64,000 nt of DNA from Candidatus Vogelbacteria bacterium RIFOXYD1_FULL_46_19 (GCA_001824825.1 MHTK01000002.1:70020-134019); one strand, 5' to 3'. Positions 396 to 35,818 are shown, counted from the first letter of the stretch. Numbers and translations: made by a program. The notes: generated by a model from the sequence alone, not told the origin.

Positions 396-2208
396 TACCG
401 GGCGAGGATTGCATTTTTAACTCATCTTTGGCTTTTTTGATAGAGAGTAGTTGGGATGGGTCGGAAGTAATAATCTGGTCTTCGGTATAAGAGGCAATAA
501 TTTTAATCGCCACCCGCTTCAGGCCGGCAAAAAAGATTCCTTCACCCACATTAGACTCCAACAGTAAGAATTTTTCTTCATCAGTTAGATTGAAAGTTTG
601 TTGGATTAGGTCGATTGAAGCTGGCGACTGTTTGAGGAGGAGTTGGAGGGAGGAGTTGGTGATAATTGGTGTTCCATAAGGGCTACGGAGGAAGTCCCCT
701 ACGTCTTGGGTGATAGTGGCGACACCCAAGTAGTATTTACGACCTCGCTTGACCAAGGAGAAGAGAAAAGAGGCAGTGTCCTCGGCCTTCATCATCCACC
801 AAGCCTCATCCACCACCATGAGGCGCTTTTTTAAATTACGGCGAATAGTGTTCCAAATGTGGTGCATCACAATGTACATAGCGACCGGCTTCAAATCGTC
901 TTCCATGTCTCGAACGGAAAAGACCACAAATTGTTTATTGATATCCACGTTGGTTGGCTTATTCAAAAAGCCCGACCAGGTGCCCTGGGTGTATTTAGCC
1001 AGACGCTGGGCCAGGGACTCCCCGCCTTCCATCCCCGCCAAAACTAATTCCAGGTCAGACAAAAGTGGGACCGGTTTGTTGGTAAAGTCGGTGCTGGGGG
1101 TAATATCTTTGAGGGCGTAAGTCTCGGAAATGGCATTGTCTATAATCGAGTCCTCTTCCGGGGTTAAGCCCCCAAGCATAATACGCATCAAGCCGACTAG
1201 GTTGATAATATTAGACCGCAAGACGTCGGCCGGAGCCTCGTCTTCTCGCGGAAAAGGTAGATCAAACGGGTTGATATGATGCTCTGATGACAAAGAAATA
1301 TTGAAATAGCGTCCGCCCACAGCTTCGGCTAAAAATTCATACTCTCGCTCCGGGTCGATGACAATAACGTCGATACCGTACATTAAGCTACGTAAGAGCT
1401 CTAACTTGGTGGCATAAGATTTGCCGGAACCAGACTTGGCAAAAGTGACCGAGTTGTAGTTTTCAAGGGAAAAGCGATCAAAGAGAACGAGGGACGAGTT
1501 GTGGCGGTTGACGCCGTAGAGGATCCCCTGATTGGAGGTGAGGTCGAAAGATACAAAAGGGAAAAGGCTAGATAAGGGCGAGGAGTTGAGTTTGGTGTGG
1601 ATAGATAAAACATCATCACCAAGAGGGGCTACACTCTGGAACCCTTCTTGTTGTTGAAAGAGGGCCGGTTTAATGTAAACCAGCTTGGCGTCTAAAATAG
1701 ACTTGATTTCGGACTCAGTCAGGTCCAACTCTTCTTTGTCAGCCCCGTAAATGGTGATATAGACGCCAATATCAAAAATTCTTTCCTGGGCTTGCTGAAG
1801 CTGGTCGCGCAGAGTTTCAATATCGGAGTAGGCTGTATCCAAAATAGGATCCCGGACAAAACCTCGTTCTTCCTTAATACTAATCTGACTTTCTACCTCG
1901 GCTAATTTTTTTTGTAAATCACGCAAGGCGGTCCCAGTATCGATAGGGTGGATAAAAATTGACACATCGAACACCTTATCTAGGTTGATGATCGGTGAAA
2001 ACCATTCTTCGGTTAAAAAACGTGGATAAGAGATAATAAAGAAGGTGCGGGCCATCTTGCTACCCAAGCTCACTTGATTGGGGGTGATACGTAGAGCCGA
2101 CGGCGCAATAATGTCACGGAGCTCCAGTACCCCCATATCGTAGATATCTTGGGGCATCACCGGGTTGATGTTTGGAGTATTTTTTTCTTTTTTATTAAGT
2201 GGCCACAT
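388..2208 (-). CDS. VirB4/TraE/PrgJ-like type IV secretion ATPase, core ATPase part (606 aa)
   Basis: Walker A KSGSGKS, Walker B MVVDEAWW (DEAW signature of VirB4 family), N-terminal YPRFLTEEWFSPII resembles conserved VirB4 linker; directly follows in same frame the N-domain ORF 2212..2856. Confidence 0.8.
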   Translation of the reverse strand: MWPLNKKEKNTPNINPVMPQDIYDMGVLELRDIIAPSALRITPNQVSLGSKMARTFFIISYPRFLTEEWFSPIINLDKVFDVSIFIHPIDTGTALRDLQKKLAEVESQISIKEERGFVRDPILDTAYSDIETLRDQLQQAQERIFDIGVYITIYGADKEELDLTESEIKSILDAKLVYIKPALFQQQEGFQSVAPLGDDVLSIHTKLNSSPLSSLFPFVSFDLTSNQGILYGVNRHNSSLVLFDRFSLENYNSVTFAKSGSGKSYATKLELLRSLMYGIDVIVIDPEREYEFLAEAVGGRYFNISLSSEHHINPFDLPFPREDEAPADVLRSNIINLVGLMRIMLGGLTPEEDSIIDNAISETYALKDITPSTDFTNKPVPLLSDLELVLAGMEGGESLAQRLAKYTQGTWSGFLNKPTNVDINKQFVVFSVRDMEDDLKPVAMYIVMHHIWNTIRRNLKKRLMVVDEAWWMMKAEDTASFLFSLVKRGRKYYLGVATITQDVGDFLRSPYGTPIITNSSLQLLLKQSPASIDLIQQTFNLTDEEKFLLLESNVGEGIFFAGLKRVAIKIIASYTEDQIITSDPSQLLSIKKAKDELKMQSSPGNV

Positions 2209-2211
2209 AAA

Positions 2212-2856
2212 TTAGGTTTTTACTGTTGGTACTCCTCGTTCGCCTGGGTTGAATATTTTAAAGTATAACTCAATCAATTCTTCTGTATTTAAACGAGCGG
2301 TTTTTACCCCTACTCGCCCCAGGCCGTCGGCTACCACTCCCAAGCGCTGTTCCAGTTGAACTTTATTATTTTGGAAATCTTCTTTGGTGGCGATTTTGGT
2401 GGTTTGTTGTTTGGATTTAGATAAGAAAGGTAGTTTAGACATTATAGTATCAGTGGTTTGAATAACTGATGGCTGATACGGGACGACAATAAAAAAGGTT
2501 TTTGTCATCACATTAGTAGCCTCGGTGAAAGTCTTGATAAAGTTCATATACTCGCGGGACTGAATTTTAATCAGTTCATTAACATGCTCCTTGGTGACCG
2601 CTTCTAAACTTGCTAAATAGGGCTGAATATCAAGCTTTTTTGACTGCAGATGAATTTGAATGGAAAAATCAAGCGAGTTTAAAAAATTTTGATACTGCAT
2701 AATAACCGCTTCTCGTTCGTCGGTGGACTTGAGAGCAAAGTTGATCGATGAGCCGATTAGTACTCCGCGATAGCTACCATCTTTTAAAATGACAATCCCG
2801 TCGCGAATTTCACGTAGGGCGACAAAATCTTGCGTTGGCTTTGCTTTAATGGCCAT
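2212..2856 (-). CDS. VirB4-family N-terminal domain encoded as separate 214-aa ORF (split gene or pseudogenised N-part)
   Basis: Sequence IRDGIVILKDGSYRGVLIGSSINFALKSTDEREAVIMQYQNFLNSLDFSIQI matches the characteristic N-terminus of Gram-positive VirB4 (TcpF/PrgJ/TraE type); ends at TAA 2212-2214, 3 nt before and in frame with ATG of 388..2208. Confidence 0.6.
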   Translation of the reverse strand: MAIKAKPTQDFVALREIRDGIVILKDGSYRGVLIGSSINFALKSTDEREAVIMQYQNFLNSLDFSIQIHLQSKKLDIQPYLASLEAVTKEHVNELIKIQSREYMNFIKTFTEATNVMTKTFFIVVPYQPSVIQTTDTIMSKLPFLSKSKQQTTKIATKEDFQNNKVQLEQRLGVVADGLGRVGVKTARLNTEELIELYFKIFNPGERGVPTVKT

Positions 2857-15483: not shown

Positions 15484-17841
15484 ATGGACTTTATAATATA
15501 TAGTTTGCTGGGTTTAGGACTCTTGCTGGCCCTCGGGGGCCTATGGTGGTATCAGCGCCGAGGTAATTTTGGCAGTTTAAACTTAAAAGTGCTACTGGTT
15601 AAGATTCCCGAGCGAGAAAGTAAGGACCCGAAAGAATTTTTACATGACATTGCTTTAAGTGAGCAACTTTTTAGCTCACTGTCGGCTATCAAGGAGCCGA
15701 TTGTATTTGAAACCGCTGTTCATAATACCGGCGGAGAAATTTATTTTTATCTAGCTGTTCCGGCTGATCGGGTCGAGTTTGTGTCGCGACAGATCCAAGG
15801 TCTATTCCCGGCGGCCGAGGTGGATTCGGCTTTGGATTACACTATTTTTGCTACCGAACACGGAATCAGGGCCGGTTACTTGGCTCTGGAGGAGTCACCG
15901 GTGGTGCCAATTCGCACTTACTTGGAAAGCGAAGTTGATTCTTTTGCTCCCATTGTGAGCACTTTGTCGCGGTTGCGGGAAGAAGGCGACGGGGCCGCCA
16001 TCCAAATTGTATTGCGGCCGACCAGCTCCAAATTTAAGCAAAAAGTTCAGTCTATTTTAAGCCGGTTAAAAAAAGGTGAATCACTTAATGAAGTACTGAA
16101 AAGTTATAAGGCTTGGGCACCTTTGGTGGATTTGGCTAAAGATTTGTCGGGGAGTAATAAAAGCCCCGATTCTCTGCCTTCGGAACCCAAGTCGATGGAT
16201 GATGAATTGGTAGCTTCACTGGAAACCAAGATCAAAAAGCCTTTGTTTGATGTGAATGTTCGCCTGATTACCGCGGCGGATACGCCCAACGAGGCCAGTG
16301 ATCTTTTGTTATCAATTAGTGGTTCTTTCAGCCAGTTTTCGGCACCTCGACGCAATAGTTTTAAAATTGTCTCCCCTCGTAAAATTACGCGTTTGGTTTA
16401 CGAATATATTTTTAGAGAATTCAATGAGGATCAGGTAATGGTTTTGAATACCGAAGAAATTGCTAGTATTTTTCACTTGCCTACCACCTCGACCGATGTC
16501 CCTCGTATTAAATGGTTGAAAAGTCGTGAAGCGCCACCACCGGAAAATTTACCCACCGCTGGGGCGGTGATTGGTCAGAGTGTGTTCCGAGGTGACATCA
16601 AACCAGTTCGCTTATCTGATCAGGATCGGCGTCGTCATTTCTACGTGATCGGGCAAACTGGTACTGGTAAATCGTTCTTTATGTTGAACCAGGTGGTCCA
16701 GGATATGCAAAACGGTAAAGGCTTATGCGTGATTGATCCCCACGGCGACTTGGTGGATAAAATTTTAGAGCGGGTGCCGGCCAGTCGCTTGGAAGATGTG
16801 ATTGTCTTTAACCCGGGTGATGTGGCGAGACCCTTGGGCCTTAATATGTTGGAGTTTAACCCAGCTCGACCCGAGGAAAAGACTTTTATCGTTAATGAGA
16901 TTCAGTCCATTTTTAACCGCCTCTTCTCGGAGGAAACCATGGGGCCAATGTTTGAGCAGTATATGCGTAATGCCCTGCTCTTACTGATGGAAGATGCTAA
17001 GCATGAACCAGCCACGCTCATGGAAGTGCCGCGAATTTTTACTGATCCGGATTTTCGGTCGCGTAAGCTGGCCCGTATTACCAACCCCACCGTCATCGAC
17101 TTTTGGGAAAAAGAGGCCGCTAAAACCAGCGGCGAGCAAGGTTTGGCCAATATTACCCCGTACATAACGTCTAAGTTTGGCAACTTTATTGCCAATGATT
17201 ATATGCGGCCGATTATTGGTCAACCAAAATCCGCCTTTAATTTTCGGGAGGTAATGGATGACGGTAAAATTCTTTTGGTTAATTTGGCTAAAGGTAAAAT
17301 TGGGGATATTAATGCTGGACTCTTGGGGATGGTGGTGACCGGGCGACTACTCCTTTCGGCTTTGTCTCGCCAGGATATGGCGGAAGACGATCGCCGGGAC
17401 TTTTATTTATACATCGACGAGTTTCAGAATTTCACCACCGACTCGATCTCGGTTATTTTATCGGAAGCCCGCAAGTACAAACTGAATCTGATTTTGGCTC
17501 ACCAATTTATTGCCCAGCTATCGGATGATATTCGGGAGTCGGTGTTTGGTAATGTGGGCTCCTTGGCGGCCTTCCGGGTAGGTATGACCGACGCGGAAGT
17601 GCTGGTCAAACATTTCCACCCCACCTTTAGTGAAAGTGATTTAATTAATATTGAAAATCAAGAGGCTTTTGTCCGGCTCTTAATTAATGGCGAGCCGGCT
17701 CGACCTTTTAATATTAAAACGGAACAAGTAGTTGGCGGTTCCGATGAACTGCGAGAACAACTGAAAGAACTATCGCGACTTACTTATGGTCGGGATATTG
17801 ATGAAGTAGAGCGGGAGATTTTGGCACGACTAAGGCACTAA
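15484..17841 (+). CDS. VirD4/TraG/TraD-like type IV coupling protein (FtsK/HerA-superfamily ATPase)
   Basis: N-terminal TM helix; Walker A GQTGTGKS followed by CVIDPHGD; Walker B YLYIDEFQNF and LILAHQFIAQL (Qs..QL-like T4CP motif). Confidence 0.6.
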   Translation: MDFIIYSLLGLGLLLALGGLWWYQRRGNFGSLNLKVLLVKIPERESKDPKEFLHDIALSEQLFSSLSAIKEPIVFETAVHNTGGEIYFYLAVPADRVEFVSRQIQGLFPAAEVDSALDYTIFATEHGIRAGYLALEESPVVPIRTYLESEVDSFAPIVSTLSRLREEGDGAAIQIVLRPTSSKFKQKVQSILSRLKKGESLNEVLKSYKAWAPLVDLAKDLSGSNKSPDSLPSEPKSMDDELVASLETKIKKPLFDVNVRLITAADTPNEASDLLLSISGSFSQFSAPRRNSFKIVSPRKITRLVYEYIFREFNEDQVMVLNTEEIASIFHLPTTSTDVPRIKWLKSREAPPPENLPTAGAVIGQSVFRGDIKPVRLSDQDRRRHFYVIGQTGTGKSFFMLNQVVQDMQNGKGLCVIDPHGDLVDKILERVPASRLEDVIVFNPGDVARPLGLNMLEFNPARPEEKTFIVNEIQSIFNRLFSEETMGPMFEQYMRNALLLLMEDAKHEPATLMEVPRIFTDPDFRSRKLARITNPTVIDFWEKEAAKTSGEQGLANITPYITSKFGNFIANDYMRPIIGQPKSAFNFREVMDDGKILLVNLAKGKIGDINAGLLGMVVTGRLLLSALSRQDMAEDDRRDFYLYIDEFQNFTTDSISVILSEARKYKLNLILAHQFIAQLSDDIRESVFGNVGSLAAFRVGMTDAEVLVKHFHPTFSESDLINIENQEAFVRLLINGEPARPFNIKTEQVVGGSDELREQLKELSRLTYGRDIDEVEREILARLRH

Positions 17842-18107
17842 GTCCAGCCAAAAAGCTAGAACAAAATCTATTTTTAGGTTATCCACAGGGGCGACGAATT
17901 GGGTTGCCTTTTCTTACTACTGGTGTAAAATTGTTGTGTACCGTTAGTTGGGCTTCCGAGATGACTGTTGGCAAAAATCCTTATTTTTAGCCATTCCTGA
18001 GCGAGAGCTAGCCATTACTATATAAAACAAGGCTTATTTTAGGTAACTTACAAGAGTCTAAGGTTGGCCCCCGCCAGCCAGACAAAACTAGGTTTCGCGA
18101 TCAAACT

Positions 18108-19157
18108 TTGTCCCCAAGGCTTATTTTAGGTTTTTTGGCCGTTATCCTCATTTTTACCACTTACCACACTGCTCATGCTGGGGTGTTTTCAGCTTTAGGT
18201 AGTAAGTTGAGTGGCGAAACTCCTTTTTATGTTCTAAATCAGGCCGTGGGGGCCAACTCTCAGAAGCTAGCTCTACTGGAACCGGAAGCAACTTTGGCCA
18301 GTAGTGCTCGTGGTGGCTTGGATCCGCAAATCGAAGATGGAGTGGCCCTGGCCCCGGTGGAAGGTTTCGAGGGATCGGCTCAAGCTACAGCTATTATTCC
18401 CCCCAACGACCAAATTAGTGTTTATGTAGTCAAAGAGGGAGACAGTTTGTCACAGGTGGCTGAAATGTTTGGGGTGTCCGTCAATACTATTATGTGGGCC
18501 AACAATATTAAGAAGTCCACTAGTATTAGTGAGGGTGATGTGCTGGTGATTTTACCTATTACTGGTGTTCGACATATCGTGAAGGCTGGAGAAACGATTG
18601 CTAAGATCGCTAAACTCTACAGTGCTGATACGACAGAAGTGGCTAATTATAATGCTTTAGCGGAAGGAACGACGCTTAAAGCCGGGGATGAAATAATAGT
18701 TCCACACGGCGTCATCCCGGCGCCGAAGGCTCCAACTAAGAAAGCACTGGTTAAATCCAAGGATGGCTCCTCTCCTTCGACCGCGTCTAAGTACGCTAAC
18801 TTACCCGATTCTTCTGGTTACTTTATCCAGCCTTTGGTGGGGGGACGCAAAACCCAAGGTATTCACGGTAATAATGCCGTTGACTTGGCGGCGAGCTTAG
18901 GAACGGAGCTACGAGCGGCGGCGGCTGGTAAAGTTATTATTGCGCGAACTGGTGGCTGGAACGGAGGTTATGGCAACTACGTGGTCATTAGTCATGATAA
19001 TGGTTCTCAAACTTTGTACGCTCATATGTTAGATGTGGTGGTGTCTCCCGGCCAAGCAGTAGCCCAAGGACAGAGTATTGGTCACCTTGGGTCTTCTGGT
19101 AATTCGACCGGACCTCATGTTCACTTCGAAATTCGGGGGGTCCGCAATCCCTTCTAG
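18108..19157 (+). CDS. secreted LysM-LysM-M23 family peptidase (peptidoglycan hydrolase)
   Basis: Signal peptide; two LysM repeats (YVVKEGDSLSQVAE..., HIVKAGETIAKIAK...); C-terminal M23 motifs HGNNAVD...GYGNYVVISH...GPHVHFE. Confidence 0.85.
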   Translation: MSPRLILGFLAVILIFTTYHTAHAGVFSALGSKLSGETPFYVLNQAVGANSQKLALLEPEATLASSARGGLDPQIEDGVALAPVEGFEGSAQATAIIPPNDQISVYVVKEGDSLSQVAEMFGVSVNTIMWANNIKKSTSISEGDVLVILPITGVRHIVKAGETIAKIAKLYSADTTEVANYNALAEGTTLKAGDEIIVPHGVIPAPKAPTKKALVKSKDGSSPSTASKYANLPDSSGYFIQPLVGGRKTQGIHGNNAVDLAASLGTELRAAAAGKVIIARTGGWNGGYGNYVVISHDNGSQTLYAHMLDVVVSPGQAVAQGQSIGHLGSSGNSTGPHVHFEIRGVRNPF

Positions 19158-34490: not shown

Positions 34491-34906
34491 AGGGCTATAG
34501 TAGCATAAAAGAGTTATTTTTGCAAGTAAACCGTACATAATTAGCTTAGGTAAAATAAAGGCCGATCCAGTTTGGGTATAGGGGAGGCTGGAGCGGCCTT
34601 ACTCATTGCTGTGCTGTGTAGACCTTTTTTGTCCGGTGTTAGGTGACTGGAAGGTATACGCTTTGAGTATTCCTATTTTACCTTTATTGGTTAGGCTTGT
34701 CAATCCCCCTCATATGGAATGATTCCGCTGACTGGTACCCCCAGGTTTCTCTGCGCTCAAAAGAGCAAAGCCATTCCATGTTTTTTTTGGGGGGGGTGTA
34801 CACCCCCCTGTAAATGTGCTCTAGGAGGGTCCTTAGAGTGGTAGTTTGTCTTGAAGTTGTAATATTGTGCGACTCTTTCTATACTGAATCAACAAAACTA
34901 CTAAAT

Positions 34907-35818
34907 ATGAAACTCATTGAACAACAGAAGCAAGAATTTCTCGACTACTTAGAGATTGAAAAGGGGCGGAGCTTGAAGACTCGCAGTAGTTATGATCGCT
35001 ATTTAAGCCTTTTTTTTAAGCAAACGAAAATCTCGTCCCCGACTGATATTGATGAGAATCTACTTAGAGAGTTTCGTTTGTGGTTGAATCGCCAGCCCGG
35101 TACGACCGGCACCTTGAAAAAAAATACCCAAAATTATTATTTAATTGCTCTTAGAACTTTTTTGAAGTACTTGGCGAGGCGGGGTGTTCCTTCCCTCTCG
35201 CCAGAGCGGATTGAACTGGCTAAAACGCCTGGTCGGGAGATTGATCTCTTAAATGAGGTGGAACTCGGCCGGCTACTTACTATGCCGGCCGACCAAGACG
35301 AAAAAAGTTTGAGAGATAAGGCTATTTTGGAGCTATTGTTTTCGACCGGCCTTCGGGTGTCCGAGTTAACCGGCTTAAACCGTGATTCCATTGACTTGTC
35401 TCGCGACGAGTTTAGTGTGCGAGGGAAGGGTGAAAAAGTGCGGCTGGTATTTTTGTCGCTCGACGCCAAAGAAGCTATTAAGACTTATTTAAAAAAACGA
35501 GTTGATATTGAAGAGGCTCTATTTGTGAGTTTAAAAAATAAAGTCGGTGATGCTCCGACTCGCCTCACTTCTCGTAGTGTGGAAAGAATAGTGAAGTTTT
35601 ACGCTACGAAGGCGGGTATTGGCAGTAAGGTTACCCCGCACACCATTAGGCATAGTTTTGCGACTGACCTCTTACAAAATGGGGCTGATATCCGCTCGGT
35701 GCAAGCTATGTTGGGCCACTCGAGCGTGGCCACTACCCAAATATATACTCACGTGACCGACAAGCACTTACGAGAGATTCATCAGAAATTTCACAATCGT
35801 AAAAATACTGGCTCTTAA
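34907..35818 (+). CDS. tyrosine site-specific recombinase, XerC/XerD family
   Basis: N-terminal FLDYLEIEKGRSLKTRSSYDRYL core-binding domain and C-terminal HTIRHSFATDLLQNGADIRSVQAMLGHSSVATTQIYTHV (R..H..R...Y); start at MKLIEQQKQ. Confidence 0.85.
   Translation: MKLIEQQKQEFLDYLEIEKGRSLKTRSSYDRYLSLFFKQTKISSPTDIDENLLREFRLWLNRQPGTTGTLKKNTQNYYLIALRTFLKYLARRGVPSLSPERIELAKTPGREIDLLNEVELGRLLTMPADQDEKSLRDKAILELLFSTGLRVSELTGLNRDSIDLSRDEFSVRGKGEKVRLVFLSLDAKEAIKTYLKKRVDIEEALFVSLKNKVGDAPTRLTSRSVERIVKFYATKAGIGSKVTPHTIRHSFATDLLQNGADIRSVQAMLGHSSVATTQIYTHVTDKHLREIHQKFHNRKNTGS

Follow-up and report, generated by a model that had tools for sequence, protein, structure and literature searches.

A VirB4 probably encoded by two adjacent genes in a chromosomal type IV secretion locus of Candidatus Vogelbacteria

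Patescibacteria's type IV secretion system (T4SS) is by now an established newcomer to its superfamily (2025 review, PMC12857230), and reports describe it as essential for the epibiotic lifestyle. In the published survey of these systems (Quinonero-Coronel et al. 2025, Microb Genom, PMC12102498), where the criterion was the TrsD HMM of CONJScan/MacSyFinder, TrsD homologues beside virB4 were the most abundant T4SS component, with 1664 of them associated with virB4, and TrsD itself was described as 'remotely homologous to the N-terminal portion of VirB4'. As cited in the same paper, the TrsD homologue of the cultivated Ca. S. epibionticum ML1 was listed as essential by Wang et al. (2023). According to this survey, the TrsD homologues of Gracilibacteria are mostly not adjacent to virB4, and therefore a strict one-to-one partnership of the two proteins is not universal. 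Guglielmini et al. 2014 (PMC4027160) do not use the name 'TrsD' in their main text, so that PMC12102498 is our only source for its homology to VirB4. The two-gene architecture is already published, and the locus described here is one more instance of it. The role of TrsD, the detached N-terminal piece, is likewise a question already recognised in the literature, for which this locus gives no special handle; what the present analysis adds is a residue-level collinear mapping of the two proteins and a survey of the geometry of their junction.

The window, namely the whole stretch of 64,000 nucleotides from Candidatus Vogelbacteria bacterium RIFOXYD1_FULL_46_19 (GCA_001824825.1 MHTK01000002.1:70020-134019) to which all positions refer, is chromosomal and carries KsgA, UvrD, PNPase, CCA-adding enzyme, a tyrosine recombinase and four tRNAs. 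Two ORFs of 214 and 606 aa follow each other in it, which the original prediction had presented as a VirB4 interrupted by a single in-frame TAA. This headline turned out to be misleading, because the architecture is the ancient one of two genes, a TrsD-like gene plus a short virB4. Very probably the pair is the normal two-gene VirB4 motor of a chromosomal, monoderm-type (MPF-FATA-like) T4SS in Patescibacteria (Parcubacteria/Paceibacteria-like).

Layout of the junction and the operon

As to the coordinates and the layout around the stop, the original prediction was right. When the ORFs were re-derived, the 214-aa ORF was found to end with TAA at 2212-2214, the TTT at 2209-2211 to form a 3-nt spacer, and the ATG at 2206-2208 to open the 606-aa ORF in the same frame, all on the minus strand; continuous translation across the junction reads ...GVPTVKT*FMWPLNKK.... 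The stop stands in a TAA-T context, and in bacteria a T after TAA makes for strong termination. The features of the locus are collected in Table 1.

Table 1. Features of the T4SS locus in the window, ordered by position
Feature	Coordinates	Strand	Remarks
Hydrophobic protein, 129 aa	6..395	-	same operon
Short VirB4-type ATPase, 606 aa	388..2208	-	rest of the N-terminal domain, followed by the P-loop ATPase domain (C-terminal)
Walker A, AKSGSGKS	1417..1440	-	in the 606-aa ORF
Junction	2206..2214	-	TAA stop, TTT spacer, ATG of the ATPase gene
TrsD-like / 'TraC-like' (PF26593) protein, 214 aa	2212..2856	-	free-standing homologue of VirB4 N-terminal domain residues 1 to 165-200
PrgI family (VirB3-like) membrane protein, 132 aa	2859..3257	-	PF12666, 35.7 bits vs cutoff 27
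ORF, 154 aa	3489..3953	-	same operon; annotated as a gene in every public assembly
Polytopic membrane protein, 866 aa	3962..6562	-	candidate VirB6/TrbL-like channel subunit
Upstream operon ORF, 1069 aa	6559..9768	-	one N-terminal hydrophobic segment
Upstream operon ORF, 231 aa	9761..10456	-	one N-terminal hydrophobic segment
VirD4-like type IV coupling protein, 785 aa	15484..17841	+	TrwB_AAD_bind, T4SS-DNA_transf, DUF87

The rest of the operon had been called intact, and this is what we see: its ORFs are tightly packed at distances of -8 to +8 nt, apart from a single gap of 231 nt upstream of prgI. The TrsD-like gene starts 2 nt downstream of the prgI stop, the ATG of the 129-aa ORF overlaps the ATPase stop by 8 nt (ATGTCTGA), and overlaps of 4 nt and 8 nt occur farther upstream. 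Among the neighbouring products, the PrgI protein has a hydrophobic stretch at residues 15-63. The 866-aa protein has several TM-like segments from residue 175 to 414 and a weak PF19590 TrbL_3 assignment in the precomputed annotation of an identical gene, with no match in the local Pfam or NCBIfam scans. In Pfam and NCBIfam the 129-aa ORF has no family match and the 154-aa ORF no credible one. The VirD4-like gene is about 5 kb from the operon, with housekeeping genes in between.

A Shine-Dalgarno-like motif precedes only about 6 of the 51 ORFs in the window, and with such rare motifs and such tight packing, a start of the ATPase ORF that has no Shine-Dalgarno motif and lies 3 nt from the preceding stop is not unusual here. 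A scan for promoters and terminators at the junction gave nothing above chance.

An alternative genetic code was also considered and rejected, as code 11 gives housekeeping genes of full length and without breaks. In this connection, TGA ends only 4 of the 51 window ORFs, and some of the public annotations of identical DNA extend genes across TGA stops; the question has no bearing on the TAA at 2212-2214.

Two proteins in the order of one VirB4

The 606-aa ORF is a P-loop NTPase with a Walker A motif and with homology to the solved VirB4 C-terminal domain. Its Pfam matches are P-loop_TraG, AAA_10 and DUF87, and in the PDB it matches 4ag5 (VirB4 C-terminal domain) at 1e-42 and TrwK at 1e-7. Against model NF045971 (VirB4-like, CD1110 family) it scores 369.5 bits, above the cutoff of 325, which places it in the VirB4 family, and its residues 28-567 align with model positions 185-733. 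No single polypeptide here spans positions 1-752 of the model; positions 3-163 come from the 214-aa ORF, whose residues 10-175 match them with a score of 33.5 bits when the ORF is taken alone. The 214-aa ORF has further matches to the N-terminal regions of two NCBIfam models, Mbov_0397 VirB4 and TrbE, and a weaker one to the TrsD/TraD model.

The same division is found on a fused protein, the 797-aa VirB4 of C. botulinum pCDC3875. Residues 21-200 of this chain align with the profile of the 214-aa family (hhalign probability 93.5%), and residues 213-757 with the 606-aa ORF (33% identity, 7e-89). Since they map consecutively onto both NF045971 and the pCDC3875 protein, the two ORFs are successive collinear pieces of one VirB4, with the break in a linker around residue 200-213 of the 797-aa chain. 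In this respect the proposal that the two ORFs together make up a VirB4 is borne out by their mapping, in order, on fused VirB4 proteins. The further statement that the 214-aa ORF carries the canonical VirB4 N-terminal domain holds for the first part of that domain only, the remainder being in residues 28 to ~230 of the 606-aa ORF.

The fold of the smaller protein points in the same direction. An AlphaFold2 model built from a 39-sequence alignment (mean pLDDT 76) has as its top 14 PDB matches exclusively R388 TrwK/VirB4 chains, with probabilities of 0.95-1.0, the matches below them being unrelated with probabilities of 0.3 or less. The TM-scores of the model to TrwK in Foldseek are modest at 0.37-0.50, and the aligned TrwK residues are absent from the Foldseek output. 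Within the PDB, the link of the 214-aa ORF to VirB4 is seen by this fold search only, as the sequence search returned no relevant match. No TM-like segment is predicted in the 214-aa ORF. It is probably a soluble protein that stands, as a chain of its own, for VirB4's first ~200 residues.

As for the family name, the position is that of a TrsD-type gene, a small gene directly upstream of a short virB4 (~600-670 aa) and downstream of the prgI gene, in the window and in 34/34 relatives. The similarity to the staphylococcal prototype TrsD is marginal: the TrsD/TraD model NF041427 gives 16.3 bits (E 0.0064), under its cutoff of 200, and the family profile aligned with pSK41 TrsD by hhalign gives a probability of 5% (E 0.007), which is unconvincing, so that membership in the NCBIfam TrsD/TraD family is not claimed. 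With a Halobacillus plasmid protein annotated as TrsD, the hhalign probability is 95.6%. PF26593 appears in the precomputed annotation of the identical protein and of the best 120 of 6952 homologues; our own Pfam scan of the ORF returned nothing even at E<=10, the scanned copy of Pfam presumably not containing PF26593. In view of the marginal similarity to the prototype we call the protein TrsD-like, or PF26593 'TraC-like'.

Conservation of the split among relatives

Homologues of the 214-aa ORF form 6952 clusters, and the best 120 of them are all stand-alone proteins of 208-242 aa with 53-100% identity, from Patescibacteria (Vogelbacteria, Zambryskibacteria, Paceibacterota and others); Giovannonibacteria are also among the relatives. 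The 39-sequence alignment of the family has 43 invariant columns, and these invariant residues, together with stand-alone homologues at 53-68% identity, indicate purifying selection, to which both ORFs are subject.

To describe the junction across species, we surveyed 34 related Patescibacteria loci together with the window, namely 35 loci. The two genes are separate in all 34 related loci as well as in the window; thus the comparison of fused and split forms in orthologous loci, which the original prediction had proposed, gives the split form in every relative examined. The distance from stop to start varies across the 35 loci: most of the closer relatives have 1-9 nt, others overlap (-25, -14) or lie 85-356 nt apart, and no conserved structure or motif was found at the junction. 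The junction geometry is therefore not conserved among relatives. What is conserved in relatives, directly after the stop, is the ATG with the next peptide M-W/S-P/L-F...KK, and this supports the ATG at 2206-2208 as a true start.

These observations bear on the idea of a fresh pseudogene, or of a sequencing or assembly error, in which a recent nonsense change would have split a virB4 of ~820 aa. Its sole support is that a point mutation would leave the same picture, a TAA in frame and a spacer of 3 nt. Against it stand the same split in every relative down to ~50% identity, the conserved ATG and N-terminal ATPase peptide right after the stop, and the purifying selection on both ORFs. Moreover, the exact 214-aa protein is on record in 14 contigs, and the junction DNA is the same as in the window in six independent assemblies, which derive from different samples and different assemblers. 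With the split kept to ~50% identity and six assemblies in agreement, we reject the nonsense mutation, the sequencing error and the fresh pseudogene, to which next to no probability can be given.

A programmed readthrough or recoding of the TAA, which would yield a covalently fused full-length VirB4 alone or along with the two pieces, is more probable than a lesion but still very unlikely. In its favour, the frame is shared in the window with a single sense codon (TTT) between the stop and the ATG, and five relatives (L008, L012, L022, L031 and L034) have a short in-frame spacer without extra stops. Nevertheless, the relative frames 0, 1 and 2 occur in 10, 13 and 12 of the 35 loci, and a shared frame in 10/35, against one third expected, is no more than chance. 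The conservation of frame and stop context among relatives that would mark a recoding site is thus not found, and the 25 loci out of frame include the two nearest related species found by the genome scan (L002 with 67% identity and L001 with 62%), both with a 1-nt spacer. Further in-frame stops are present in 4 of the 10 in-frame loci. Besides, TAA, the most frequent of the ordinary stops in the window (30/51 ORFs), stands here in a strongly terminating TAA-T context, and the junction has no conserved structure or motif. With frames at chance, extra stops and such a context, stop-codon readthrough is rejected as a conserved mechanism. Altogether, the lengths of the homologues, the junction geometry and the independent assemblies lead us to reject nonsense mutation, assembly error and conserved readthrough alike. 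The shared frame of the two genes in the window is without function, and the in-frame junction is a coincidence.

A weaker form of the same idea, in which the TAA-TTT-ATG junction might allow rare readthrough and thus a little covalently fused VirB4 beside the separate proteins, is just as improbable; if it were true, the fused VirB4 could, for example, seed or bias the assembly of the essential T4SS motor. In a milder reading, the detached N-terminal subdomain would let the cell set its stoichiometry apart from that of the ATPase.

Among the explanations named in the original prediction, it is the functional split into two polypeptides that is supported, by separate genes which are conserved and collinear with fused VirB4. 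For annotation this calls for caution, as a VirB4 ATPase that follows a short ORF in frame resembles the product of a nonsense lesion, while in the Patescibacteria T4SS this architecture is the standard one; such loci should therefore be neither flagged as pseudogenes nor merged.

Proposed function and comparison with known systems

For the two-gene motor we propose the following scenario. Either an ancient fission of the gene or an ancestral state without fusion would have made VirB4's first ~200 residues a separate protein. prgI, trsD and virB4 would be co-transcribed as one polycistronic message from which both proteins are translated, the TAA acting as a true stop and the ATPase ORF starting independently at the ATG 3 nt downstream, possibly by re-initiation of the terminating ribosome or else by ordinary initiation without a Shine-Dalgarno motif in an A/U-rich stretch, the usual case for genes of this genome. 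The TrsD-like protein and the short VirB4 may then associate non-covalently and rebuild a VirB4-like N-terminal domain. We infer such a reassembly by analogy with the R388 VirB3-VirB4 complex. Through the rebuilt domain the ATPase hexamer might be docked onto the membrane channel and PrgI/VirB3, because VirB4 sits with VirB3 in the R388 complex 8RTB.

The synteny of PrgI, a TrsD-like protein and a DUF87/VirB4 protein is common to plasmids of Geobacillus, Halobacillus and S. aureus (pSK41). In Geobacillus pGspE55-1 a 318-aa protein is followed by a 636-aa DUF87 protein with a 14-nt overlap; in the Halobacillus plasmid a protein annotated 'TrsD' (345 aa) is followed by a 622-aa DUF87 protein; and in pSK41 trsD (227 aa) is followed, after a 14-nt spacer, by a 672-aa ATPase. 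Residue 36 of pSK41 TrsE aligns with residue 32 of the window ATPase, and thus both short VirB4 proteins begin at the same point.

It might also be thought that the TrsD-like protein, though a descendant of the VirB4 N-terminus, is now independent of the ATPase and serves as an adaptor, assembly factor or regulator with its own stoichiometry. This would agree with the extra N-terminal extensions of the Bacillales TrsD-like proteins (318 and 345 aa), with the distances of as much as 356 nt between the genes of some relatives, which permit uncoupled expression, and with the survey in PMC12102498, which reports that TrsD has no assigned function and finds the Gracilibacteria homologues mostly away from virB4. 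Such an independent role seems unlikely to us, as the order prgI, trsD-like, virB4 agrees with the order of the segments in fused proteins and is kept from Firmicutes plasmids to Patescibacteria, and what TrsD supplies is exactly the segment missing from the short VirB4 proteins.

Turning back to the two-gene VirB4 motor as the preferred reading, the pGO1/pSK41-type MPF-FATA systems of Firmicutes (TrsD/TraD with TrsE/TraE) resemble the window in having a small TrsD gene directly upstream of a 620-670-aa DUF87/VirB4. They are, however, plasmid-borne conjugation machines with relaxases, whereas the system in the window is chromosomal and, according to the literature, repurposed. The fused monoderm VirB4 of the CD1110 family, as in C. 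botulinum pCDC3875 (797 aa), has PrgI upstream just as in the window, but it is a single polypeptide where the window has two genes. In R388, TrwK/VirB4 (cryo-EM 7O41 and 8RTB) has chains that match the fold of the 214-aa protein, and its ATPase domain is homologous to the 606-aa ORF; the 8RTB complex contains, per its entry title, VirB4 with VirB3, VirB6, VirB8 and VirB10. In contrast to the window, TrwK is a single chain, with a very low identity of 10-14%, and belongs to a diderm system with an outer-membrane complex. The closest counterpart is the published Patescibacteria T4SS (PMC12102498), which is of the same lineage and has the same gene set of PrgI/VirB3, TrsD-like, VirB4, VirB6-like and a distant VirD4; both are chromosomal and lie among housekeeping genes, and there is no substantive difference between them.

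Stop codons and the public gene calls

In several public gene calls for DNA that matches the window exactly (loci L039-L043), the VirB4-type ATPase is annotated as 598 aa, with the start placed at an internal ATG (2155-2157) and the TGA stop passed over, and the same calls lengthen the following ORF from 129 to 141 aa. These versions are likely to have come from a code-4/25 model picked by metagenomic gene calling. In the window, TGA is the terminator of only 4 of 51 ORFs, but the housekeeping genes are uninterrupted under code 11.

Features of the window (window coordinates)
Feature	Position	Remark
TGA stops passed over in public calls	388-390; 6-8	
Example ORF starts for initiation signals	15020, 53199, 61533 (+); 14957 (-)	
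Operon protein, 1069 aa	6559-9768	one N-terminal hydrophobic segment
Operon protein, 866 aa	3962-6562	polytopic
VirD4-like coupling protein (785 aa) and LysM-M23 peptidase (349 aa)	15484-19157	
G8/C6 palindrome TTTTTGGGGGGGGTGTACACCCCCCTGTAA	34784-34813	
Tyrosine recombinase ORF	34814..35818	Phage_integrase family
Small ORF, 104 aa	41877-42191	

Initiation signals and other window features

Over the whole window, only about 6 of the 51 ORFs have a Shine-Dalgarno-like motif in front of them. Several ORFs carry a TATAAT-like hexamer a few bases 5' of the start codon, which suggests that leaderless or SD-independent initiation is frequent.

Elsewhere, the G8/C6 palindrome directly adjoins the tyrosine recombinase ORF on its upstream side. 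The 104-aa ORF, which sits within a 1.5-kb region devoid of long ORFs, resembles by eye an RRM/RNP-1-type RNA-binding protein (motifs KGFGFVEF and LYVGGL).

Candidate T4SS components and archaeal homologues

As for the two large operon proteins, neither the 1069-aa nor the 866-aa product matched any family when scanned against local copies of Pfam and NCBIfam, and precomputed annotation gives only a weak TrbL_3 match for the latter; each is a candidate lineage-specific part of the T4SS, either at the surface or in the channel. The virB4 operon is some 5 kb away from the VirD4-like and LysM-M23 peptidase genes, with KsgA and UvrD in between, and the peptidase is possibly a cell-wall hydrolase serving the T4SS. 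No relaxase was seen among the window ORFs scanned.

Stand-alone homologues of the 214-aa TrsD-like protein, annotated as hypothetical, are also carried by haloarchaeal plasmids, as found by tblastn in Haloprofundus halobius (H27, E = 5e-6) and Salinibaculum sp. (H29, E = 6e-7), so archaeal MPF-FATA-type systems may also have the N-terminal piece of VirB4 as a detached protein.
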